The translations under genes were made by a program, and so were the position numbers. Under the pieces are notes generated by a model. It was not told where the DNA came from and did no database searches. It was given only the letters and a program-made list of their open reading frames with translations. DNA of 62,817 bases, the filler included, from Nitrospinota bacterium (GTDB lineage Bacteria > JADFOP01): the NCBI GenBank assembly GCA_022562795.1. It is 9 parts of 9 records of this genome, joined end to end, with 100 filler letters (N's around TTAATTAATTAA, not from the genome) between each part and the next. Parts side by side here need not be neighbours in the genome. Positions count along the whole stretch, not along the records: positions 1 to 12,319 come from JADFOP010000052.1; 8 more parts are not named here. One strand, 5' to 3'. Each line of letters begins with the position of its first letter. Position 1 is the first letter of the stretch. Shown here piece after piece: positions 1 to 12,319 of the stretch.

Positions 1-215
1 CTGACTCGATTGAACCTCCAGGGGCAAATTACCCCAGTAATATTAACTTTTCCCCTCTAAGCGAAAGTAACGATTACCTGGGATAATCTTAACTACCGAG
101 TAAGTTCGCACTGCCACGCCGCATAATCCAGGATAAATGACGGTGCATAGCGGATTCGATAATCTCTCGACAGCATGATGGTGGTGGTTCTCGGTTGATA
201 ATCTTATTTGTCCTG

Positions 216-533
216 CTACGAGCCCTCCTGTCTCATCAGCTCAATAGCTTCCGTTGGGGTTAGCATGTTCTCGGGGATACGGTAGAAGCCTGCCTTCCAG
301 TTTTGGGTGTTCTTCGGCACTTCCAGTATCACATAGCTGTAATCGAGGAATTTGGCTGGCAGGATACGCTCTTGAACGAGCCGAGGTGGATGGTTTATCG
401 ATGCTATCCAATGCTCCTGTGCCAGATGAAATTTCTCAATCGCCCTTTCTAGGGATATCTCAAGGGGCGGAAGGGGGGTCGCACCCTTTTCCTCCTCATG
501 GCGAAGGGCTTTGGTTAGCCAGACCTTGACCAT
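216..533 (-). CDS. hypothetical protein (105 aa)
   Basis: ORF with G-rich RBS (GAAAGGGGG) just before ATG; lower-GC accessory region; no recognised motif. Confidence 0.6.
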   Translation of the reverse strand: MVKVWLTKALRHEEEKGATPLPPLEISLERAIEKFHLAQEHWIASINHPPRLVQERILPAKFLDYSYVILEVPKNTQNWKAGFYRIPENMLTPTEAIELMRQEGS

Positions 534-669
534 GATTTCCCCCTTTCATTGATTATATCACCTCCCAGCGTGTCCCCGCTATGGTAGCCTAAGGATAACC
601 CCTGCAATGGAAGCCCGTATTACAAGCCACATCTGGACGATGGAGAAAATCTTGGGAGGAGGATAGGTA

Positions 670-828
670 GTGCCACAGGTCAAACTTTGTAAGTACTGCC
701 AGGAACCCATCGATGAAAGGGACGATGAATTTGTTCTTTTGAACCCTGAGGCAATGGGCGATAATGACAAGCCCCTCCCGGAAGCACTGTGGATTTATGC
801 TCACGTTAGGTGTCATGTCCAGGATTAG
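670..828 (+). CDS. zinc-finger microprotein (52 aa, CxxC...HxxC); not in ORF track
   Basis: Manual translation from GTG after GGAGGAGG: MPQVKLCKYCQEPIDERDDEFVLLNPEAMGDNDKPLPEALWIYAHVRCHVQD; resembles 862..1065. Confidence 0.65.
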   Translation: MPQVKLCKYCQEPIDERDDEFVLLNPEAMGDNDKPLPEALWIYAHVRCHVQD

Positions 829-861
829 GAACGTAGGAAGAAAGGGTAATCTTTAATTCAA

Positions 862-1065
862 ATGGCGATTATGACTAACTTAAACAACGATATTGGCCTA
901 TGCCACTACTGTCGAGAACCCATCTGGGAGAACGATAGCTACGTCCAGAGGGGTAGTCTGGAAGGCAACGAGATAGAACAATACCATGTCCCATGCTTCA
1001 GAGAAGTGGAACCGAAAGGGAAGCATGGATTTATGGGTTCATTTTTTTTAGATGATGCGAAATGA
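862..1065 (+). CDS. zinc-finger microprotein (CxxC...HxxC)
   Basis: LCHYCREPI...YHVPCF motif; similar to the preceding small ORF. Confidence 0.65.
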   Translation: MAIMTNLNNDIGLCHYCREPIWENDSYVQRGSLEGNEIEQYHVPCFREVEPKGKHGFMGSFFLDDAK

Positions 1066-1193
1066 ATGAAACATTGAAATGGGCCATCTACAATTTCTGC
1101 TGACTCAACTACATAATCGCCTTAGGAACTGACCCTTGTTTATCATTAGGTTTGATAAAATAGGGTAGCAGAGACATTGGCGGTGAATATTTC

Positions 1194-1352
1194 TTAAACT
1201 TTCTGTCCCTCTTTATATCCTTCTTTTCGTCTACATCGAGGACAGAGGCGGTTAGCCTTGCCCCAGCTGTCGAAGTAATCGCTACAGCCAAGGCATTTCA
1301 GGCGTACCGTTCCTTGTTTGGGTTTGGGTTGTGGCTTTTTTATGTAATTCAT
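1194..1352 (-). CDS. zinc-ribbon microprotein (52 aa, CxxC-x13-CxxC); not in ORF track
   Basis: Manual translation MNYIKKPQPKPKQGTVRLKCLGCSDYFDSWGKANRLCPRCRRKEGYKEGQKV. Confidence 0.65.
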   Translation of the reverse strand: MNYIKKPQPKPKQGTVRLKCLGCSDYFDSWGKANRLCPRCRRKEGYKEGQKV

Positions 1353-1459
1353 GTCTTCCCAGAACTCTTATTGCTATGGACAGTGACCTGCCCCCATTCA
1401 TTGTACCACCTACAAAGAGGTATTGACTATCTTAAGGATCGCCATACTTAGGTTCTATT

Positions 1460-1603
1460 ACACGATGTAGTCTTAACTCGTGGCCCTAGGGGGCCAGGGG
1501 CAATAACTGTTGAAATATGCCCTCTAAGACGGTCCATGGATGGAGTTTCCTTTTTAGGAAGGAGAAGCCTCGGCATATGGTGTCTGGGTTCCGCCTGAGG
1601 CGG
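1460..1603 (+). repeat. ~140-bp dispersed element, copy 1 (inverted copy at 53920..54062)
   Basis: 56-bp core 1494..1549 is the exact reverse complement of 53973..54028; flanks ACACGATGTAGT and GAAGGAGAAGCCTCGGCA also shared. Confidence 0.85.
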
Positions 1604-1925
1604 GCCTGAGGCGGAGGGCCGGGCGACCCCGACCTACCCGGGATGCGGACAGGGAGTCCGCCTTAAAAGGAGTCGGGGTCAGGGGGTCGCAGGCGACCTT
1701 TGGTCGGCCCGACTACCCGGTGGATGCGGACAGGGACGAGCCCTGTCCCTACAGTGAGGCCCATTGTAGGGACACCCCATGTGGGTGTCCTCTACAGGGT
1801 CTGTCTCAATGTAGGGACGCCCCTTGTGGGTGTCCGCGAACAGGCATGACCCCAACTAAAAGGATGAACCCCTCCGCATACACGGTTCAGCCTCCCAGCC
1901 CACGGACATCCGCCTGTGACGGGCC
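1580..1925. repeat. cluster of GTAG-headed REP-like palindromes and CCGCCTNAGGCGG motifs
   Basis: TGTAGGGACACCCCATGTGGGTGTCC, TGTAGGGACGCCCCTTGTGGGTGTCCG, inverted CGGACAGGGACGAGCCCTGTCCCTACA; 1866..1907 is related to the 52911/53083 duplicate. Confidence 0.85.
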
Positions 1926-1926
1926 C

Positions 1927-2772
1927 CTACATCTCATCGAGCTTGACGAGCTCGGCGCTTGCGTCCCATAGCCGACTGGCGACTTCCTTATTGTATGACT
2001 CCTCGGACGTTTTCACCGGGGTCTTTTCGACGAAGTATTTGCCGGTCACCCCTTCCACGTCGGGAGACGATGCGAGGTAGATGACCGTCTCGGCGCCCTT
2101 TTCAGGGCTTAAGAGCATGGGGCTCATCAGCGGCCAGAGAATACGGAGCCACAGCGCGGCGTCCTTGGCAAGCCTGGTCGCGACAACGCCAGGATGCATG
2201 CAGTTGGCAGCGACCCCCGTCCCTTCCAGCCTTTTTGCGAGCTCGTAGGTGAAGAGGACGTTGGCGAGCTTTGAGTGATCGTAGACGCGCATCCCAGCGT
2301 ATCCTCTCTCCATCTGGAGGTCGTCGAAGTCGATGGTAGCCCCCTTGTGGGCGTTCGAGCTTACGTTGACGATCCGGGAGGGGGCGCTCGCCTTGAGGAC
2401 GTCGAGCAGAAGGTTCGTAAGGAGAAAGTAAGCGAGATGATTGAGGGCGAAGGTCGCCTCGATGCCGTCTTCGGTGAGCCTCCGGGTCCCGATGATGGCC
2501 CCGGCGTTGTTCACCAAAACATCGAGGCGCCGGTGTCGGCGGGCGAACTCCTCGGCGAGACGTCGGATCGCCCCTTGGGAGGAGAGATCGGCTATAAGCA
2601 GCTCCACCGACTCGTTTCCGCTCGTTTCGGCGATCTCCGCCCTCGCAGCCTCGCCACGGCCCCTGTCTCGGCAGACCATCGCCACCGTGGCGCCTCGCGT
2701 CGCCAGGGCCAGGGCGGTCGCCTTTCCGATCCCGGAGTTGGCCCCGGTCACGAGACAGACCTTGGAGCGCAT
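1927..2772 (-). CDS. SDR family oxidoreductase (retinol dehydrogenase-like)
   Basis: TGANSGIG, NNAG, YxxSK (YDHSK), HPGVV; start placed at ATG 2772 overlapping upstream stop (TGATG). Confidence 0.9.
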   Translation of the reverse strand: MRSKVCLVTGANSGIGKATALALATRGATVAMVCRDRGRGEAARAEIAETSGNESVELLIADLSSQGAIRRLAEEFARRHRRLDVLVNNAGAIIGTRRLTEDGIEATFALNHLAYFLLTNLLLDVLKASAPSRIVNVSSNAHKGATIDFDDLQMERGYAGMRVYDHSKLANVLFTYELAKRLEGTGVAANCMHPGVVATRLAKDAALWLRILWPLMSPMLLSPEKGAETVIYLASSPDVEGVTGKYFVEKTPVKTSEESYNKEVASRLWDASAELVKLDEM

Positions 2773-3305
2773 CAGACCGGTTTTGCGGGAAGACCCATGA
2801 GAGAAAACAAGAGGGTGAGGATCAACGCTTGGACTACCCAGCCGATCACGCAAACCCCAACGGCGCGCCACGTGCTCGTATAGTCCAGAGCTTGCCTGAC
2901 CGCGATTATCATCGCGACGAGCATCCAGATCGAGGCGACCATCATTACGATCCCCGCAAGAGGCGGGATGACGCCCAGGATGCGAATCAACCCGGGGGAG
3001 CTCGAAAAGCCGATGGTTCGCAACAGCTCGCCGTGATCGGCTTTCGTCTGCGGCTCGGCAAGGAGTTTCGTCCCGATAAAGTAGGTGAGGTAGGCCCAGA
3101 TATACCACGCGACGAGGGCGACGATTGTGCCCACGACAATCCCGCCGACCCCTCCTCTTCCAAAGGTTCCGACTCCGGCCGCTATGCTGGAGAGAACGAC
3201 AACGCCCGTTGCCTGGCCCATCGCCCCCTTGTCGGCCTCGACCTCCTCGTAGAGGTTGACGTCGAGCTTGGCGGCGCGGATGATACGATCCATAAGAGGA
3301 TTCAT
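2772..3305 (-). CDS. YIP1 family membrane protein
   Basis: Hydrophobic multi-TM ORF with LYEEVEAD, LLRTIGFSSSPG, AVRQALDY motifs. Confidence 0.75.
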   Translation of the reverse strand: MNPLMDRIIRAAKLDVNLYEEVEADKGAMGQATGVVVLSSIAAGVGTFGRGGVGGIVVGTIVALVAWYIWAYLTYFIGTKLLAEPQTKADHGELLRTIGFSSSPGLIRILGVIPPLAGIVMMVASIWMLVAMIIAVRQALDYTSTWRAVGVCVIGWVVQALILTLLFSLMGLPAKPV

Positions 3306-3404
3306 CGTCGTACCCTTGTTACGCTAAAGGATTCAAAGGATCGGGGGGAGACGGGATCCGTCCCGGCGAAGGAGCTTGGACGGTACGGGATCACCCCCGG
3401 CGGC

Positions 3405-3443
3405 GGCCGATTTTCCGCGATTTTCCGCGATTTTCCGAATACG
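3405..3443. repeat. 39-bp element with 10-bp-phased repeats, copy 1
   Basis: GGCCGATTTTCCGCGATTTTCCGCGATTTTCCGAATACG; exact reverse complement at 52789..52827. Confidence 0.85.
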
Positions 3444-3495
3444 GCGCTAATCATAAATGGCTATGGCTTCTCAAAATTATAGACGCAGGGATTTT

Positions 3496-3702
3496 TTAAT
3501 GCGGCTCGCGACCCAACTGGGTCCGGATTTCGTCCACTCACGGGGGGCAGGCCCCGTCGGCTTCCACCCAATCGGGGTTATCCTCCTTGATCGCATCAAT
3601 GATGTGATGGTCCGTGTGTTTAAGAAAGGCCATGAGGTCCCGCTTCATCGTCTCGCCGCAGGTCGGGCAGGTATAGGTTCGATGCGTCTGCTCCTCGCCC
3701 AT
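3496..3702 (-). CDS. putative small selenoprotein (68 aa; CxxC...CxxU), TGA at 3538..3540 read as Sec
   Basis: RBS GGAGG; MGEEQTHRTYTCPTCGETMKRDLMAFLKHTDHHIIDAIKEDNPDWVEADGACPP-TGA-VDEIRTQLGREPH-TAA; hairpin 14 nt after TGA. ORF is well supported, recoding is inferred. Confidence 0.6.
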
Positions 3703-3804
3703 GGCGCGCCCTCCATCTCTCAATTCTAAAACGGATTACGATACAGCCTGCACGGCTCATTCTACCCTACTAGAATCTAGTATCAAATGCCAGCTTTTCC
3801 GGCG

Positions 3805-4494
3805 TCAGCTCGGGGCTTTCTTCGGAGGCGCCCCGACGAGCACCGTCACCTCCCCCTTGACCTCGCGGTCGGCCAGGGCCTCGTTGAGCTCAGCCACACT
3901 CCCCCTGATAAACTCCTCGTAGCGCTTCGAGACCTCCCTGGCCACGACGCAGGGCCTCTCTGGCCCGAAGGTCTCAAGCAATTCGGCAAGGAGCTTCTTG
4001 AGCCTCCGTGGCGACTCGTAGAGGACGACCGTGTGTCCCAGGGCCGCGAGCTCCTCCAGCCGCCTCTTGCGCCGGCCCGATTTCGTCGATAGGAAGCCCT
4101 CGAACGTGAAGGTGTCGGTGGGCAGGCCCGAAGCCGAAAGGGCGGCGATGAGGGCCGTCGGGCCGGGGACAGGCACGACGGCCACGCCCGCCTCAACGGC
4201 GGCACGCACAAGCCGGACGGCGGGGTCGGAGATACCGGGGGTCCCGGCGTCGGTCACGAGCGCCACGGATGCCCCGGCCGCAAGTCTGGCGATGAGCTCG
4301 GCCTGCTTCTTGGCCGGGCTGTGGGCGTGGTAGCTCGTAAGCGGCGTGGAGATGCCGTATGCGCTCAAGAGCTTCCGGGTAACGCGGGTATCTTCGGCGG
4401 CGATGAGGTCGGCGGACCGCAAGACCTCGACGGCACGGTGGGTGATGTCCCCCAGGTTGCCGATGGGGGTGGCGACGATGTAGAGGGCGTCCAT
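3805..4494 (-). CDS. rsmI: 16S rRNA (cytidine(1402)-2'-O)-methyltransferase
   Basis: LYIVATPIGNLGD, AAEDTR, TDAGTPGISDP, FEGFL, YESPRR. Confidence 0.95.
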   Translation of the reverse strand: MDALYIVATPIGNLGDITHRAVEVLRSADLIAAEDTRVTRKLLSAYGISTPLTSYHAHSPAKKQAELIARLAAGASVALVTDAGTPGISDPAVRLVRAAVEAGVAVVPVPGPTALIAALSASGLPTDTFTFEGFLSTKSGRRKRRLEELAALGHTVVLYESPRRLKKLLAELLETFGPERPCVVAREVSKRYEEFIRGSVAELNEALADREVKGEVTVLVGAPPKKAPS

Positions 4495-4627
4495 CTCGAT
4501 CCCATGACGCTTCAGGCCAAGCCATCCAATGCCCCAAGGGAGGGGAACACCTCTTGCAAATTACCAAGCGTAAACACGCCCCTCCTCGGACGAGGGGCGC
4601 TCAAGCGCCGCGGAGGTTATACGCCCG

Positions 4628-4888
4628 ATGCGTCTGGATAAGGCCTGGCCCCTCGTAGTTGTTGACAACACTTATCGTTGCGGCCACTGCCTCTCGCTAA
4701 AGGTAGAGTGGGCGGAGCTAGAGGCTATCCGCTACCGCGACCACATGGGGGGCAAAGTTATCATAGAGCCGGGTTATTTCTGCCTAGAATGCGAACAGAT
4801 ATCCTTGCCCAACAAGGCCGACGAAGCCATGGGAAGGCACCCCAAAAGAAACCTCGAGGGACGCCCTCCGGGCCTCCCTCGAACGTAG
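4628..4888 (+). CDS. small CxxC...CxxC hypothetical protein (86 aa)
   Basis: RBS GGAGG; CGHC and CLEC pairs; fills the gap between rsmI and the dehydrogenase. Confidence 0.55.
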   Translation: MRLDKAWPLVVVDNTYRCGHCLSLKVEWAELEAIRYRDHMGGKVIIEPGYFCLECEQISLPNKADEAMGRHPKRNLEGRPPGLPRT

Positions 4889-4919
4889 CAGGACTCGTAT
4901 CCTCGGAGGCGGGGCCCTT

Positions 4920-6125
4920 TCAGACCACCGCCTTAATGTAGTCGCTCCAGCGCTTCTCGATCTCCGTATCCTGGATCGTCTCCATGATGTAGGCGGCAAA
5001 TTCCCGCCCCGTGCAGCCGGTATCTCTACCCGTGATGGCGAGCCGCTTTTCGTACTGGCCGCAGACGTCGAGAGCCATCTCGAGCTTGTCAGCCAGATCG
5101 ACCAAGCCGATGTGGCGAATAAGCATCGCCCCGGCGCGAATCATGGAGGATGGGTCAGCATACTGGACCCGTCCCTCTTTCACCATGCGCGGGGCGCTTC
5201 CGTGGATGGCCTCGAACATGGAATAGACCCTTCCGATATTAGCGCTTCCGGCCGTCCCCACCCCGCCCTGGAACTCGGCCGCCTCGTCGGTGAGGATGTC
5301 GCCGTAGAGGTTGGGGAGCGCCATGACGCGAAAGTAGGTCCTGCGCTTGGGATCGATGAGCTTGGCCGTCATGATGTCAATGTACCAGTCGTCGCACTCG
5401 ATCTCGGGATACTCCTCAGCGATGCGGTAGCCGATATCGAGGAACTTCCCATCGGTCGTCTTCACCACGTTGGCCTTGGTCACCAGGGTCACCTTGGGGA
5501 TCTCATTCTTCTTGGCGTAGTCGAAGGCCAGCCGGATGAGCCGCTCAGTCCCCTGGCTCGTAACCGCGCAGAAATCTATGGCCAGATCGTCGGTCACGTC
5601 GATCCCGTCGGGGCCGAGGGCGTAGGCCCCCTCGGTGTTCTCACGGAAGAAGACCCAGTCGATCCCCTCGGCGGGCACCTTAACGGGCCGTACGTTGGCA
5701 AAGAGGTCGAGCTCCTTTCGCAAGGCCACGTTGGCGCTTTCAATGTTGGGCCACGGGTCGCCCTTACGCGGGGTGGTGGTCGGCCCCTTGAGGGTAACGT
5801 GACACTTCTTGATATCCTCAAGCACCTCGTCGGGGATGGGTTTACCCACCTCAGCCCGCCGCTCGATGGTCAGGCCTTCGACGTCTCTAAGCTCCACCTT
5901 CCCGTTGGAGATCTCCTCCTTGAGAAGCTCTTCGAGCAACCACCTGGCCTCCTTGGCGATGTAAGGGCCGATCCCGTCGCCGCCGATGATGCCGACGATA
6001 ATCGGCGAGACGGTGGAGAAATCGAGCCAGTCAGGGGCCTGCTTAATCCTATCCACACGCGCAAGCTGAAGCTCCAGAAGCCTTCCGAAATGCTCCTTTG
6101 CCCTCTCGATTACGTCAACGCTCAT
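4920..6125 (-). CDS. isocitrate/isopropylmalate dehydrogenase family protein
   Basis: GDGIGP, LKGPTTTP, RENTEG, NLYGDILTDEAA, FEAIHGSAP. Confidence 0.9.
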   Translation of the reverse strand: MSVDVIERAKEHFGRLLELQLARVDRIKQAPDWLDFSTVSPIIVGIIGGDGIGPYIAKEARWLLEELLKEEISNGKVELRDVEGLTIERRAEVGKPIPDEVLEDIKKCHVTLKGPTTTPRKGDPWPNIESANVALRKELDLFANVRPVKVPAEGIDWVFFRENTEGAYALGPDGIDVTDDLAIDFCAVTSQGTERLIRLAFDYAKKNEIPKVTLVTKANVVKTTDGKFLDIGYRIAEEYPEIECDDWYIDIMTAKLIDPKRRTYFRVMALPNLYGDILTDEAAEFQGGVGTAGSANIGRVYSMFEAIHGSAPRMVKEGRVQYADPSSMIRAGAMLIRHIGLVDLADKLEMALDVCGQYEKRLAITGRDTGCTGREFAAYIMETIQDTEIEKRWSDYIKAVV

Positions 6126-6284
6126 TCCTCTCCCTCCGTCCTCGGAGATACAATCGCATAAGCCACCAGGTAAATTCCTTACAAGCGCAGAACCTGCTAA
6201 GTATGACGGGTCTGCCAGCCGGTGTCAACGTTTCTGGGATGGATAGAGAAGGGCGTGAGGTAACGACAAAAATATGTTACATGC

Positions 6285-7013
6285 TTAGGTTCGCACCAAA
6301 TCCTTAAGCCCCTGCTCGATGGCGTCAATATAATTGCGAGCCGCTTGAAGCGGGTCAGAGGCATAAATAATCGGGCGGCCGACAACCACATAATCTGCTC
6401 CATTTCTAATAGCCATGGCCGGTTCTGAGTGCCTCTTGTGGTCGTCCGTCGTATCCGCCTCCAACCGAATCCCAGGAGTAACTATTATGGTTCTCTCTGG
6501 GACGACCTTCTTAATGGCAGGAGCTTCCAAGGGCGATGTAATGACACCGTCACACCCCATTTTGACCAGGTGCTCGACTCGCTGAAGGACAAATTCTTCC
6601 ATCGGCATATCAACGCCATATACTTCTTTCAGGTCGGATGCGTCCCAGCTGGTAAGGGCCGAGACAGCTAGGAGGCTGAGATCGTGAGAGCCCCTTGCCT
6701 CAATAGCCGCTGCCACATTCCTTGCCGTTCCATGGACAGTTGTAAAGCTGACCCCGCTCTCGGCGATAGCTCGGACGGCGCGGCCGACCGTTTCTGGGAC
6801 ATCGTAAAGCTTTAAATCGAGGAACACCTTCTTGCCAAGGTCCATGAGCCGTCGGGCAAAGTCCAATCCGGTTTGAAGGTGTAGAACGTGTCCTATCTTG
6901 AAAAAGGATACAATCTCATTGAGCTTTTCAACCAGCCCAAACGCCTCATCAGGGTCTGGTATGTCGAGGGCTACGATAAGGCGGTCTTTTGCTCTTAGGT
7001 TATCCCCAGCCAC
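6285..7013 (-). CDS. pyrF: orotidine-5'-phosphate decarboxylase
   Basis: LIVALD, FLDLKLYDVPETV, VTPGIR, VVGRPI. Confidence 0.93.
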   Translation of the reverse strand: MAGDNLRAKDRLIVALDIPDPDEAFGLVEKLNEIVSFFKIGHVLHLQTGLDFARRLMDLGKKVFLDLKLYDVPETVGRAVRAIAESGVSFTTVHGTARNVAAAIEARGSHDLSLLAVSALTSWDASDLKEVYGVDMPMEEFVLQRVEHLVKMGCDGVITSPLEAPAIKKVVPERTIIVTPGIRLEADTTDDHKRHSEPAMAIRNGADYVVVGRPIIYASDPLQAARNYIDAIEQGLKDLVRT

Positions 7014-7181
7014 CTGGATATCTCCTTAATACACCATGCTTTGTGCGGGAATGGAACCAGTCGTCCGTATGTCGTGACTGGTAATATTATACAACCCTCG
7101 CCTTGCGCCTCGTCAACTCCTTTCTGTCCTATCGTTGTGAGGTGAACCAACGGGCACGATTCCGCTCACCCCCTTTGGGGG

Positions 7182-7706
7182 TCATCGGAGCTTCACGACG
7201 AGAGGGCCGATCTTCTCGACACGCTGGCCCGGCGGCAGGGCCGCCAGCATATCCTCGACCGAACGGCCTGTGACCGGATGGACGAAGCTGGGGTTCAGCT
7301 CCCGCAGAGGCTCCAGCACAAACGCCCGCTCGGATAACCTTGGGTGGGGTAGCGTGAGGTCTTCCTCGTCGATGACAATCTCTCCGTAGGTTAGCAGGTC
7401 GAGGTCGATGGGGCGGGGGCCGAAGGGGACCTCCTGGGAGCGGTCCCGGCCCATGGCCTTCTCGATGGCCTGACAGTGGGCCAGGAGCGCCTGGGGGGTA
7501 AGCAGGGTCTCAATGCGGACGACGGAGTTGATGAAATCGGGCTGGTCGGCCACGGGCCCTTCGGGGCTCGTTCGCCAGAGGCTCGAGGCGCCCGGGAGAG
7601 AAACCCGGTCGTGGTCGTCCAGCTGACGAGCCGCCTCCACAAGCTGAGCGATAGGCTCGCCCACGTTCGCCCCCAGAGCGACATAGGCCTCGACCGGCTC
7701 GTTCAC
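7182..7706 (-). CDS. folK: 2-amino-4-hydroxy-6-hydroxymethyldihydropteridine diphosphokinase
   Basis: AYVALGANVG, QPDFIN, GPRPIDLDLL, LPHPRL-ERAFVL; GTG start just after the dapL stop. Confidence 0.93.
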   Translation of the reverse strand: MNEPVEAYVALGANVGEPIAQLVEAARQLDDHDRVSLPGASSLWRTSPEGPVADQPDFINSVVRIETLLTPQALLAHCQAIEKAMGRDRSQEVPFGPRPIDLDLLTYGEIVIDEEDLTLPHPRLSERAFVLEPLRELNPSFVHPVTGRSVEDMLAALPPGQRVEKIGPLVVKLR

Positions 7707-7707
7707 C

Positions 7708-8883
7708 CTAGAACCCGACCTCCTGGATGCGTTGTGTCGCTTCGGCGAGCCTCTCTTCCCCCACGGTGAGCGCGATCCGGCAGTAGCCCTCGCCGGCGGC
7801 ACCGAAGCCCACCCCAGGGGTCACCACGATGCCGGTCTGCCTAAGCAGGTGGGCGGCGCAGTCTGTTGAGGCCAGCCCCGGAGGGCATGCGAACCAGACG
7901 TAGAAGGTGGCCCGAGGCCGCTCGACCTCGAGGCCCGCTTTACGTAGCCCCTCTACAACCACATCTCTTCGACCCTGGTATGTGCGCCGCATCTCGGCTA
8001 CACAATCCTGGGAGCCGCTCAAAGCCGCGATGCCCGCCTCCTGGACGGCCTGGAAAATCCCGCTATCGATGTTGGTCTTAATGCGCCCGAGGCCAGCCAC
8101 GAGCTGAGCGGCGCCGACGGCAAACCCGATCCGCCAGCCCGTCATGTTGTAGGTCTTGGAGAGGGAGTGAAACTCGATAGCTACTTCCTTGGCCCCCTCG
8201 ACTTCGAGGATCGAGGGTGGGCGGAAGCCATCGTAGGCCATCTCGGTATAGGCGGCATCGTGGGCCAGAGCCACGTTGTGCTCGGCCGCCCAGTCCACTA
8301 GCTCCTCGAAGAAGGAGAGCTCACAGCAAGCCGCGGTCGGGTTGTTGGGGTAGTTGAAGAAAAATAGCTTGGCACGCCGGGCAACCTCGGCGGGAATCTC
8401 CTCGAGCGCCGGCAGGAAACCACGGTCTTGCCGAAGAGGGACGGGATGAGGCTCCCCGCCGGCGAATAGGACCGAGGTGCGGTAGACGGGGTAGCCGGGC
8501 TCGGAGTAGAGGACCAGGTCGCCGGGGTTGACGAAGGCCAACGGCAGGTGGGCTATTCCCTCCTTGGAGCCGATGAGGCTTACCACCTCATCCTCCGGCT
8601 CGAGCGCCACATCGAAACGGCCACGGTACCAGTCGGCAACGGCCCGACGAAACTCAATCATCCCTTCGTAGGAGGGGTAGCGGTGGTTGGCCGCCTTCTC
8701 GGCCGCCCCCTGGAGGGCCTCGACTATATGAGCCGGGGTGGGCAGGTCAGGGTCGCCCACGCCGAGGTCGATGATATCGGCCCCCTTGGCTCGCTCCTCG
8801 TCGCGCATCCGGTCGATCTCGGCGAAGAGGTACGGCGGAAGAGCGCTCAAGCGCTGGGCCTGGGAAATCTCCAGGTCTGCCAT
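7708..8883 (-). CDS. dapL: LL-diaminopimelate aminotransferase
   Basis: Class I/II PLP aminotransferase (LPPYLFAEID, NYPNNPT, SLSKTYNMTGWRIG) in a dap/lys operon. Confidence 0.85.
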   Translation of the reverse strand: MADLEISQAQRLSALPPYLFAEIDRMRDEERAKGADIIDLGVGDPDLPTPAHIVEALQGAAEKAANHRYPSYEGMIEFRRAVADWYRGRFDVALEPEDEVVSLIGSKEGIAHLPLAFVNPGDLVLYSEPGYPVYRTSVLFAGGEPHPVPLRQDRGFLPALEEIPAEVARRAKLFFFNYPNNPTAACCELSFFEELVDWAAEHNVALAHDAAYTEMAYDGFRPPSILEVEGAKEVAIEFHSLSKTYNMTGWRIGFAVGAAQLVAGLGRIKTNIDSGIFQAVQEAGIAALSGSQDCVAEMRRTYQGRRDVVVEGLRKAGLEVERPRATFYVWFACPPGLASTDCAAHLLRQTGIVVTPGVGFGAAGEGYCRIALTVGEERLAEATQRIQEVGF

Positions 8884-8945
8884 GAATCTTCCTCACTCAA
8901 TACGGTTGATGCCTCGGCTCAGGGCCGGCAGGAGAACACCGTCGG

Positions 8946-9755
8946 CTACTCTCTGAGGCCCAGGACGTCTTGCATGTCGTAGAGGCCCGGCGGCTGGTCG
9001 ACCACCCAGCGGGCGGCGCGGGCCGCCCCACGGGCGAAGTTGTCCCGGTTGTGCGCCCGGTGGGTAAGCTCCAGCCGCTCGCCGATGCCACCGAACATCA
9101 GGGTGTGGTCACCCGTTATGTCGCCGGCCCGAAGAGTCATAATGGCGATCTCCTCGCCCCGGCGCTCCCCTATGATTCCATGGCGACCGTAAACTCCCAC
9201 CGACTCAAGGTCCCGGCCAAGGGCCTCGGCCACCACCTCGCCGAGGCGGACGGCCGTCCCGCTCGGGGCGTCCTTTTTGAAGCGGTGGTGGGCCTCGACG
9301 ATCTCCACGTCGTAGTCCTCACCAAGGAGACGGGCCAGCTCGGCGGCTACCTTGAACATGACGTTTACGCCGACCGACATGTTGGGGGCCACCACCGAGC
9401 GGGTCGTGGGACCGATCTTCTCTATGGCGGCGCGTTGCTCGTCGGTGAAGCCCGTCGTCCCGATGACCACGGCGCAGCCACCCTCGGCAGCAGCGTTGAG
9501 GTGGGCGATGCTCGCCTCGGGGTGGGTGAAGTCTAGGACCACGTCGGCCCCTCCAAGGGCCTCAGCCAGGCTTCCCACGACGGCCACCCCCTGAGGCTCG
9601 GCCCCGGCCACGACGCCGGCGTCCTGGCCGACGGCGGGGTGGTCTGGCCGCTCAACCGCCCCGGCCAGGGTTAGCTCAGGATGGGCGATGACCTGATGGA
9701 CGACGCGCCCGCCCATCCGACCGGATGCGCCGCAGACCACGGCACGGACCATCAC
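8946..9755 (-). CDS. dapB: 4-hydroxy-tetrahydrodipicolinate reductase
   Basis: GASGRMG, GTTG, APNMSVGVN, EAHHRFKKDAPSGTA. Confidence 0.96.
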   Translation of the reverse strand: MMVRAVVCGASGRMGGRVVHQVIAHPELTLAGAVERPDHPAVGQDAGVVAGAEPQGVAVVGSLAEALGGADVVLDFTHPEASIAHLNAAAEGGCAVVIGTTGFTDEQRAAIEKIGPTTRSVVAPNMSVGVNVMFKVAAELARLLGEDYDVEIVEAHHRFKKDAPSGTAVRLGEVVAEALGRDLESVGVYGRHGIIGERRGEEIAIMTLRAGDITGDHTLMFGGIGERLELTHRAHNRDNFARGAARAARWVVDQPPGLYDMQDVLGLRE

Positions 9756-9794
9756 ATTCTCCTCACTCGACGGTGTCGGCGGACTGAGACGCCG

Positions 9795-10667
9795 CTACAG
9801 GACGCCGGCCTCCTTGAGCACGGAGGCGAGCCGCCCCTCGTTGGCCTCGCTCAAGGGGCTGAGAGGGAGCCGGACCTCCCCTGTGATCCTGCCCATGAGC
9901 TTTAAAGCCGTCTTGACCGGGATGGGGTTCGTCTCCATGAACATCGCCTTGTTGATGGGCCTAAGGTAATAGTGGAGCTCTCTTGCGCGGTCCCACTCAC
10001 CCTTCAGGGCTGCGTCGCAAAGGGCCGCCATCTTGTCGGGAACGATATTGCTCACGACACAGATAACCCCCCTCCCGCCGACGCTGATCAGCGGAAGGAC
10101 CGTGAAATCGTCCCCTGAGACCACCACGAAATCCTCCGGACAGAGGGCGATTACGTCGGCGATCTGGGAGAGGTCGCCCGTCGCTTCCTTGATGCCGACG
10201 ATGTTAGGCAGCTCCGCGGCGCGGGCCACCTCGTCGGGCAGCATGTTGCGCCCCGTCCGGCTGGGCACGTTGTACATTATGATCGGCAAGCTCGTCGCCT
10301 CGGCCACAGCCTTGAAGTGCTCGTAGAGCCCCTGTGGGTTCGGCTTGTTGTAATAAGGGGTGATGACGAGGCAACCGCTGGCCCCGGCCCGCTCAGCATG
10401 CTGAGTCAGATCGATCGACTCGCTGGTGGAGTTGGAGCCGGTCCCGGCGATCACGGGCACACGGCCGGCGGCTTGCTCTATGGCCACTTCCACCACGCGG
10501 TGGTGCTCCTCGTGACTGAGGGTCGCCGACTCCCCCGTCGTCCCGCACGGGACAATGCCGTGTATGCCTCCCTCAATCTGGAAGTCGATGAGCCCCCGGA
10601 ATGCGGCCTCGTCGAACTCGCCGTCCCGGAAGGGTGTGACGATGGCAGTGAAGCAGCCCTGAAACAT
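9795..10667 (-). CDS. dapA: 4-hydroxy-tetrahydrodipicolinate synthase
   Basis: GTTGES, YNVPSRTG, GIKEATG, SGDD, ETNPIPVK. Confidence 0.96.
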   Translation of the reverse strand: MFQGCFTAIVTPFRDGEFDEAAFRGLIDFQIEGGIHGIVPCGTTGESATLSHEEHHRVVEVAIEQAAGRVPVIAGTGSNSTSESIDLTQHAERAGASGCLVITPYYNKPNPQGLYEHFKAVAEATSLPIIMYNVPSRTGRNMLPDEVARAAELPNIVGIKEATGDLSQIADVIALCPEDFVVVSGDDFTVLPLISVGGRGVICVVSNIVPDKMAALCDAALKGEWDRARELHYYLRPINKAMFMETNPIPVKTALKLMGRITGEVRLPLSPLSEANEGRLASVLKEAGVL

Positions 10668-10682
10668 GATGACAACCCCCCC

Positions 10683-11945
10683 TTAGAGCAAAAAGTCGGG
10701 AATGATCTCCCCCCGGACTAAGTCCTCGTAGCTCTCCCGCTGTCGGATGACGTGATAGTCCGAGCCCTCCACGAGGACCTCGGCGACCCGAGGCCGGGAG
10801 TTGTAATTGCTTGACATGGAAAAGCCGTAGGCCCCGGCGCTCATCACGGCCACGAGATCCCCCTGCGCCAGAGGCGGCAGGGGCCGGTCTTTTGCCAAAA
10901 AGTCGCCGCTCTCGCATACGGGCCCCACAACATCGACCGGAGAGCGGGGCGCCTCGGCGTCGGCCTCGGCCACCGGCCAGATGGCCTGGTAGGCCCCGTA
11001 TAGGCTCGGGCGGGCCAAGTCGTTCATGGCCGCGTCCACGACGAGGAACGTCTTCTCCTGGTGCGCCTTGGTATAGAGCACTCGGCTTACCAGCACCCCG
11101 GCGTTGCCCACGATGACCCGGCCGGGCTCGAAGATGAATGTCACCCCCAGGCCGTCCATTGCCGGCAGGAGCGCCTCTGCAAGCTCTTTCACGTCGGGCG
11201 GGTCCTCGTCCTCGTAGGTGATGCCCAGCCCGCCTCCAAGGTTTATGTAGCTGATGGCGATCCCTTCGGCCATGAGCTTCTCCACCAGAACGACGATCCT
11301 CCCCAGAGCGTCCACGAATGGGCTCGCCTGGGTAATCTGGCTTCCAATGTGGCTGTGAAGGCCCACGACCTCGAGGTGGTCCATCTCAGCGGCCCGCCGA
11401 AAAGCCTCCAAGGCCTCGGAGAAGGGGATGCCGAACTTGCTCTCCCTCAGGCCGGTGGCGATGTAAGGGTGGGTGGCCGGGTCGACGTCGGGGTTGACCC
11501 TGAGCGCCACCGGCGCCCTGAGGCCGAGCTCGCCGGCCACTGAGTCAATGACCTCAATCTCCTGGCGGCCCTCTACGTTGAACATGAGAACCCCGGCTCT
11601 GAGCGCCCCAGCGATCTCCTCCCGGGTCTTGCCTACCCCGGCGAAGACGATGCGTTTGGGGTCGGCCCCGGCGAGAATCGCCCGGTAGAGCTCGCCTCCC
11701 GAGACGATGTCCACGCCACCGCCCATATTTATAAAAAGCTTGAGGATGGCCAGGTTGGAGTTGGCTTTCACGGCGAAGCAGATGAGATGGTCCACCGAGT
11801 CGAAGGCCTCTTCAAAGGCCCTCCAGTGGCGCACCAGAGTGGCATGGCTATAGCAGTAGAAGGGCGTCCCGACATCGGCGGCGATCCGCTCGAGGGGCGC
11901 CTCTTCGCAGTGAAGCCATCCATCTATGTATGAAAAGTCGCTCAT
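10683..11945 (-). CDS. lysA: diaminopimelate decarboxylase
   Basis: [35 protein letters not shown]; start set at ATG 11945. Confidence 0.96.
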
Positions 11946-12040
11946 CGACCCAGGGGTCCTTTTCGGGGATGTCCGAAGGTGCGGTACGTAGCTTCTCAAC
12001 TTAGCATCGCCCAAAGGCAGCGTCAAGAAGCAACGGGGCC

Positions 12041-12301
12041 TTAAGGCGGGGGAGGAGGCTTCACAGGGCGGGGCTTCTCGGAGCGGATCGGTTCAGTCTC
12101 CGAAGGAGTCTTTGCCATGGGCGCCGGGGCCTTAAGAGAGCGGGCAGGGGGAGTCGGAGCCCCCTTTTTGCCGCAGCCGCCAGCAGCGGCCAGCCCGACG
12201 GCCAGCCCCAACGCCGCCGCGACCATCGTCCCCCGTCCTAAGCGCCAGATGCCGGCTCTCTCCGCCGGAAAGGCTCCATCCCTACTTTCGCCCCGGTTCA
12301 C
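12041..12301 (-). CDS. small lipoprotein upstream of lysA (LppL/LptM-like)
   Basis: Hydrophobic stretch followed by GGCGKKG-P-PP lipobox pattern; typical position before lysA. Confidence 0.65.
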   Translation of the reverse strand: MNRGESRDGAFPAERAGIWRLGRGTMVAAALGLAVGLAAAGGCGKKGAPTPPARSLKAPAPMAKTPSETEPIRSEKPRPVKPPPPP

Positions 12302-12319
12302 CGCTTCGCCCGACGTAGC

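Follow-up and report, generated by a model that had tools for sequence, protein, structure and literature searches.

A putative selenocysteine codon in the gene of a small, predicted C2H2-like finger protein from a Nitrospinota bacterium

A 2026 review lists 119 selenoprotein families and subfamilies, each with a model identifier (PMC13188914, Table 1). Among them, the CxxU selenoproteins (SelW-like, AhpD-like, DUF1858 and the CC/Se motif family NF041239; PMC13188914) have a UGA at a conserved Cys of a CxxC motif, many Cys homologues and a hairpin downstream; their function has been guessed from the motif. These traits are shared by a small gene on the minus strand, at positions 3496..3702 of the window analysed here (the whole stretch of 62,817 nt, filler included, assembled from a Nitrospinota bacterium, GCA_022562795.1). 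The gene is interrupted by an in-frame TGA at 3540-3538, and the initial annotation had interpreted it as encoding a probable selenoprotein. This interpretation is now supported by a Cys column in the family, conservation downstream of the TGA, the same TGA in an ortholog, a hairpin fitting the published rules, and the presence of tRNA-Sec and selD in the genome; the gene is, very probably, a real selenoprotein in which the TGA serves as a selenocysteine (Sec) codon. Unlike the CxxU families named above, the query has no match to their models, and its predicted fold is a β-hairpin followed by two helices rather than a thioredoxin-like fold. None of the model identifiers of the 119 families appeared among the Pfam and NCBIfam matches of the query, and a C2H2-like finger is not found on the list. 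The literature searched, which left out the BSepDB supplementary list (PMC13326102, Table S2), contains no description of such a selenoprotein family. The gene is a candidate for a new selenoprotein family using the ordinary recoding mechanism.

The reading frame begins with ATG at 3702 and, under translation table 11, terminates at the TGA with ...WVEADGACPP. As the initial annotation had stated, the frame does not end there: translation reproduces its continuation through 13 further codons to the TAA at 3498-3496. Translation across the TGA extends MGEEQ...DGACPP by VDEIRTQLGREPH and yields a 68-aa product running from M1 to H68, with the TGA (3538..3540) at residue 55. The coding sequence including the TAA spans 3496..3702, and both the ortholog and the homologues align over residues 1–68. 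The motif C52-P-P-U55 (3538..3549) is placed by translation, the family columns and AlphaFold2 (AF2) at the N-terminus of a predicted helix comprising residues 53–62. The CPTC and HxxHH motifs reported earlier in the N-terminal half of the protein are found at residues 12–15 (C12-C15) and 29–33 (H29-T-D-H32-H33).

The relatives of the protein were collected with HMMER from 1.84 billion cluster representatives; 169 were found at E ≤ 1e-3 (clusters at 50% identity), including 30 at E ≤ 1e-10. The word-indexed search returned only three near-identical 54-aa proteins. An alignment was built from 130 of the 150 listed proteins (136 rows), leaving out 20 proteins longer than 300 aa. In the column of the TGA, 99 of the 136 rows have Cys (the recoded C of the query included), 29 have a gap and eight have another residue; in the column of the partner residue, Cys52, 104 rows of the same alignment have Cys. 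The TGA thus stands where the initial annotation had placed it, at the second Cys of a CxxC. In tblastn comparisons, the motifs CPKC, CARC, CDPC, CLTC, CQKC and CDRC align to CPP-TGA and are followed by a similar tail, so both of the things that a tBLASTn search had been suggested to look for, namely Cys homologues and conservation past the TGA, were found. The translated tail of the query, V-D-E-I-R-x-Q-L-G, resembles the tails of Cys homologues and of paralogs. In this field, a selenoprotein is recognised by an in-frame TGA aligned with Cys in at least two homologues (PMC1088965), and the TGA of this gene is aligned in this way. That the TGA should coincide with a conserved Cys column, and that conservation should persist downstream of it, is far beyond chance.

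The family pattern can be described as Y-x-C-P-x-C, often H-T-x-x-H, then P-x-W and D-G-x-C-x-x-C-x-x-Y-Y. Most members stand alone and measure about 60 aa; fusions to subtilase or other domains occur in a few, and some are extended at the C-terminus by about 110 residues, which appear, by eye, to be membrane-spanning. One long form of 198 aa, composed of the finger and the C-terminal extension, was noticed at locus L046 (1429-2840), ending where an MlaE permease gene starts.

A six-frame search of 61 genomes found an ortholog in a genome of the same genus (G001), in which a single TGA occupies the corresponding position. The two proteins, that of G001 and that of the source genome (G000; 97.1% complete, 84 contigs), are 69% identical. 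Of the 46 codons before the TGA, 22 are identical between the two genomes, 10 are synonymous and 14 are changed; in the 13 codons after it, eight are identical, three synonymous and two changed. Both species have the second stop at one and the same codon, as TAA in G000 and as TGA in G001, and the 60 nt past it show 28% identity. Since the changes are mostly synonymous, the position of the stop is kept and similarity is lost after it, conservation runs, in this frame, up to the second stop and ceases with it. A second group of proteins (P0024, P0154, P0200 and P0201; P0200 and P0201 share 77% and 80% identity, respectively, with P0024) all end with ...DGACPK, one residue short of the Cys column. 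The DNA of this group was not found among 23 metagenome loci, 10 genome loci and three genomes of the phylum; from the protein ends, the TGA is probably common to this second lineage as well.

These comparisons bear directly on the possibility that the TGA is an ordinary stop, that the protein has 54 aa and ends with CPP, and that the conservation of the following 39 nt has a different cause, for example a transcript-end or regulatory hairpin. Annotation pipelines do call products of 54 or 51 aa, and the family includes members without the second CxxC (the His pair only in 29 of 123 aligned domains). Set against this, the changes behind the TGA are mostly synonymous (three, versus two that are changed), the second stop is kept at one codon despite the different triplets and similarity collapses beyond it, a strain variant at 3528 is a conservative in-frame Ile>Leu, the tail fits those of Cys homologues and paralogs, and in two lineages the stop coincides exactly with the Cys column. 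An ordinary stop is, consequently, a distinctly improbable explanation, even with the hairpin statistics and the absence of selA and selB from the assembly, both discussed below, counted in its favour. A recent pseudogene, in which a Cys codon (TGC or TGT) became TGA through a nonsense mutation, is more improbable still. One base change would suffice for it, and the genome has a Cys-less paralog that might take over the function; yet the TGA is common to two species whose proteins differ as much as stated above and to strain variants from several studies, it is probably present in the P0024 lineage too, and the codons on either side of it are under constraint.

An error of sequencing or assembly, with TGC or TGT as the true codon, is scarcely credible. 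The TGA is found in the window, in G001 and in the independent metagenome contig L040, and three DNA runs belonging to three studies likewise gave contigs in which no other letter occurs at 3538-3540; the comparison of reads for TGA versus TGC or TGT that had been proposed at the outset thus gave TGA throughout these contigs. The 90% cluster of the window protein has 25 members; among the 15 that are listed, 14 are 54-aa proteins ending with CPP, from many contigs, and one, P0172, is an 80-aa frameshift-like reading. Variant sites in the contigs of the DNA runs are located at 3497, 3528, 3552 and 3560. The change T>C at 3497 (plus strand) converts the TAA stop (3496..3498) to TGA, the same triplet that the sister species has there; 3528 is the Ile>Leu substitution in the tail mentioned above, and the variants at 3552 and 3560 correspond to A51T and A48D.

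The genome contains part of the machinery required for Sec insertion. A tRNA-Sec gene was found in G000 at C58:1708-1797, with an Rfam score of 77.6 bits against a cut-off of 47. ARAGORN made a second tRNA-SeC call at G000:C58:15724-15811 (L074 3725-3812; anticodon tca, 88 nt), which was not reported by Rfam at the gathering score. The selD gene of G000 (C41:1-693; 307 bits) contains an in-frame TGA itself, reading GGGUACKLG, and is cut by the contig end; selD of G001 (C147:1-867) also has an in-frame TGA and is also cut by the end of its contig. Two matches to the AhpC-TSA family in G000 (C1:42483-42824 and C48:7533-7901) have one in-frame TGA each, in the leading position of the active-site pair, to read W-U-P-W-C and W-U-H-Y-C; these genes probably encode further selenoproteins. 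A genome-wide sense code for TGA was ruled out, as 926 long frames end in TGA, which is for the same reason an otherwise normal stop in G000. According to the BSepDB article (PMC13326102), Nitrospinota, Nitrospinaceae and Nitrospinae records (GTDB UBA8248) are among the ten most selenoprotein-rich bacteria.

The initial annotation had also pointed to a hairpin 14 nt past the UGA, with a possible lower stem GUGG/CCGC, and RNAfold returns this structure whole, as the minimum free energy (MFE) fold, at −14.0 kcal/mol. The stem-loop, resembling a Sec insertion sequence (SECIS), occupies 3501..3537 on the minus strand. The GACCC-AGUU-GGGUC element (3523-3510) consists of an upper stem, 3523-3519/3514-3510, and an apical loop AGUU, 3518-3515, while GUGG/CCGC can close the lower stem at 3537-3534/3504-3501. 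The rules for bacterial SECIS (bSECIS) elements, as given in the legend to Fig. 2 of PMC13188914, comprise an apical loop of 3–9 nt with G in one of the first two places, an upper stem of 4–16 bp, a distance of 16–37 nt from the UGA to the loop and an MFE of −7.5 kcal/mol or lower. The suggested comparison with these published constraints gave agreement with all four: the AGUU loop has 4 nt, with G in second place and U next, the upper stem has 5 bp, the spacing is 19 nt and the energy is as stated. In another TGA-containing gene of this genome, on C48, a 5-bp hairpin with the loop AGUUA, 16 nt after the TGA, appears possible when 45 nt are inspected by eye; the RNAfold MFE fold of that segment differs.

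In the proposed scenario, Sec would have replaced, in this genus, the last Cys of the second CxxC, giving C-P-P-U. SelB carrying Sec-tRNA(Sec) would be recruited by the hairpin located 14 nt past the UGA, with its AGUU loop 19 nt downstream, so that Sec is inserted and termination does not occur. By analogy, this recoding step would follow the established bacterial pathway.

Several observations weigh against the reading of the TGA as a Sec codon. The bSECIS rules, in the authors' own implementation, were applied as a control to all TGA-ended stop-to-stop frames of at least 200 codons in the genome (n = 926); 147 of these ordinary TGA stops (15.9%) pass, 52 of them at −14.0 kcal/mol or lower, a frequency that also suits the ordinary-stop explanation. 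The hairpin is not unusually stable (z = −0.36 for the 66-nt fold versus shuffles). The upper-stem changes between G000 and G001 (A16>U and U27>C) are not compensatory, and a fold common to both requires a shifted register and a one-base bulge, with energies of −8.7 and −7.1 kcal/mol. No covariation supports the hairpin in the two distinct sequences compared, and these two are the only distinct DNA sequences of the Sec form at hand. Rfam at gathering thresholds reported nothing over the locus and tRNA-Sec elsewhere only. The hairpin exceeds chance only modestly; it is consistent with a SECIS element and, given the pass rate of ordinary TGA stops, it is weak evidence. As for the machinery, selA and selB were not found in G000 with PF03841, TIGR00474, TIGR00475 and PF09107 or by tblastn with the G001 proteins, a result that again agrees with an ordinary stop. 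The expectation of the initial annotation that selA, selB, selC and selD would all be present was thus borne out for selC (tRNA-Sec) and for the Sec-containing selD, while selA and selB are absent from the G000 assembly, the single expected feature that this assembly lacks, and lie adjacent to each other on one contig in G001. Without selA and selB, a selD whose own synthesis requires Sec could not function; these two genes therefore presumably fall in a gap of the assembly. Finally, RNA run X19 gave one metatranscriptome contig of 152 nt (3547-3698), which ends before the TGA and is too little for a claim of expression.

With the query, all Pfam and NCBIfam matches stay below the cut-offs of their models. 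The same holds for the family domain in 18 homologues that were scanned, five of which match other, fused domains. Both results are in line with the earlier remark that the family was not a recognised one. The sub-cut-off Pfam matches of the query are zf_UBZ (17.3 bits) and zf-Di19 (14.2 bits), and homologue P0038 matches zf-C2H2_4 with 18 bits, likewise below the cut-off. The putative C2H2-like finger (3604..3669) is formed by C12 (3669-3667), C15 (3660-3658), H29 (3618-3616) and H33 (3606-3604), with the spacing C-x2-C-x13-H-x3-H; it was delineated from this spacing, AF2 and matches of the family profile to C2H2 fingers of the PDB (Aart, 1e-8; consensus finger, 2.8e-4). The AF2 model, obtained with a 59-sequence alignment, has strands at 9–11 and 18–20 and helices at 23–41 and 53–62, with CPTC in the turn; the mean predicted local distance difference test score is 74. 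Foldseek gave no match in the PDB at E ≤ 0.001; all matches had E > 0.8 and were nearly only C2H2 fingers. The ESM Atlas, searched with the natural Cys homologue P0012, returned only clusters of 'hypothetical protein'.

The N-terminal half would be a C2H2-like ββα finger in which C12, C15, H29 and H33 hold a structural zinc ion; with zinc placed there, C52-x-x-U55 at the start of the last helix would be left as the working site. We favour this division of labour between a structural C2H2-like zinc site and a working C52-x-x-U55; the Zn-binding/redox character put forward by the initial annotation is likewise a prediction. The closest paralogs, one in each of the two genomes, retain C12, C15, H29 and H33 and have S-P-A-V in place of C-P-P-U, which argues that the finger does not need the CxxU pair. 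These Cys-less paralogs (G000:C81:1210-1830, locus L024; G001:C89, locus L023) lie directly downstream of a thioredoxin gene (WCGPC) in both species. A scan of 44 loci for W-C-x-x-C found the motif in open reading frames (ORFs) only beside the L024 paralog and, 1.2 kb away, in L067.

As regards the role of C52-x-x-U55, a redox-active thiol/selenol pair has about an even chance of being correct. It is placed ahead of a metal-ligand role because redox-active Cys is reportedly the main origin of Sec and because the paralogs show the fold without the pair; the title of PMC1794560 names redox-active Cys residues as the evolutionary source of Sec. Binding of zinc or another thiophilic metal by the pair is a somewhat less probable alternative. 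If the Sec is real, U55 could, on this rival account, join C12, C15 and C52 in a single two-knuckle metal site, as in zinc ribbons and treble-clef fingers, instead of forming a redox pair, and the selenolate might tune the affinity or selectivity for metals, for example soft ones; this version is given the same probability as the ligand pair. In treble-clef metal sites, a Cys pair is located at the N-terminus of a helix, and the second pair of the query has a similar, treble-clef-like position. The four Cys are nearly invariant columns of the family alignment. When the ligand pairs were counted in the 123 aligned domains having the first knuckle, 37 combined the His pair with the second Cys pair and 29 had the His pair only (three of these being Sec-type truncations), while 47 had no His pair, with the four Cys as sole ligands, and only 10 had neither pair (five of the 10 rows come from two repeat proteins that are possibly unrelated). 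Zinc-ribbon-type and metal-binding selenoproteins have already been predicted, in the FmdB family (UxxU) and in MbdU (PMC13188914, Table 1). Against the shared metal site stand the closest paralogs, which keep the finger and the His pair yet have lost both CxxU residues, so that the fold is independent of the pair, and also the redox origin of Sec stated in the title cited above. The functional assignment as a whole is weakened by the 47 domains without the His pair, which speak for a metal site of four Cys rather than for a free redox pair, by the middling confidence of the AF2 model and by the lack of a recurring gene partner in 22 loci (49 neighbouring ORFs picked from 77 candidates).

A bolder and rather unlikely possibility is that the protein is the first Sec-bearing zinc finger to act as a switch, with the C12/C15 zinc site completed either by the His pair or by C52/U55. 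The loss of one pair or the other in family members, and rarely of both, would agree with it. A highly reactive selenolate might then flip the protein upon oxidation or upon binding a soft metal and let it sense redox state or metals rapidly, in a lineage that is apparently rich in selenoproteins.

Other features of the locus include a Shine–Dalgarno-like GGAGG (3710..3714, minus strand), read directly from the sequence 7 nt before the ATG, and a σ70-like promoter match upstream (3759..3786, minus strand; TTGATA, 16 nt, TAGAAT), which is a consensus match only, at 10 of 12 positions, with two sites found versus 0.5 expected in shuffles. A 90-aa antisense ORF on the plus strand (3457-3729) spans the whole gene; it is taken as a shadow ORF because the substitutions agree with the frame on the minus strand. 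Immediately downstream of the gene, at 3405-3447 (units 3409-3438), are three tandem copies of a 10-nt unit (GATTTTCCGC, plus strand). This unit has 53 copies in the genome, with at least two tandem units at 14 places, and metagenome contigs over the repeat stretch reach 30–100 times the depth of the flanks and have loose ends at either side. The array looks like a dispersed short intergenic repeat. In G000 the gene is flanked by rsmI, a Yip1-like protein and an SDR; in G001 its neighbours are FKBP and TPR proteins. Of the window, only positions 1-12319 map to contig C12 of G000, while the remainder is N or belongs to other contigs.

All annotations give the gene as a hypothetical protein of 51–56 aa, and as a result residue 55, probably the working site, is missing from databases. 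If the proposed reading is true, a family would be added to the 119 listed in Table 1 of PMC13188914, with Sec residing in a zinc-finger-like scaffold and not in the usual thioredoxin fold, and the case would bear on whether Sec replaces metal-binding Cys besides redox Cys. It would also be the first lead to the function of a widespread, unnamed bacterial family (169 clusters), in which the Cys pair replaced by Sec is likely the site of importance.

A comparison with known systems helps to place the protein. It does not fit the thioredoxin-fold CxxU/UxxC selenoproteins (SelW-like PF10262, Trx and Prx), in which the motif follows strand 1, as there is no Pfam match to them and the predicted order of elements is E-E-H-H within 68 residues. 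With classical C2H2 fingers it shares Y-x-C-x2-C ... H-x3-H with a hydrophobic core and, by prediction, a hairpin and helix, and its weak profile and fold matches are nearly all to such fingers; unlike them, it has a spacer of 13 rather than the 12 of C-x2-4-C-x12-H-x3-5-H, reaches the cut-off of no Pfam C2H2 model and gives only Foldseek matches at the E-values mentioned above. Classical fingers also lack the extra P-x-W ... D-G-x-C-x-x-C helix of the family, and 47 of the 123 family domains have no His pair. Hsp33 and the anti-sigma factor RsrA contain redox-sensitive zinc sites, in which a Cys pair could oxidise, releasing or exchanging the metal. They offer an analogy only for the possible working of the protein, which has more candidate ligands than one zinc ion needs; no kinship in sequence or fold was seen. 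The FmdB family (TIGR02605, or Zn_ribbon_8, PF09723; UxxU form) is likewise composed of very small proteins with two CxxC knuckles and Sec in a knuckle, whereas in the query Sec is only the last residue of the second pair and no match to TIGR02605 or PF09723 was obtained at E ≤ 10; P0148 is the only one of the 18 homologues scanned with a PF09723 match, whose 20.4 bits fall short of the cut-off of 34.4. The dual CXXC motif small selenoprotein OS_HP3 (NF041197) is also small, with two CxxC motifs and no function known; its Sec motif is RxU or GxU and not CxxU (PMC13188914), and the NCBIfam search at E ≤ 10 gave no match of the query to NF041197 or to NF041239. Although the query matches the models of neither, the FmdB zinc-ribbon family and OS_HP3 are the described systems nearest to it in spirit.
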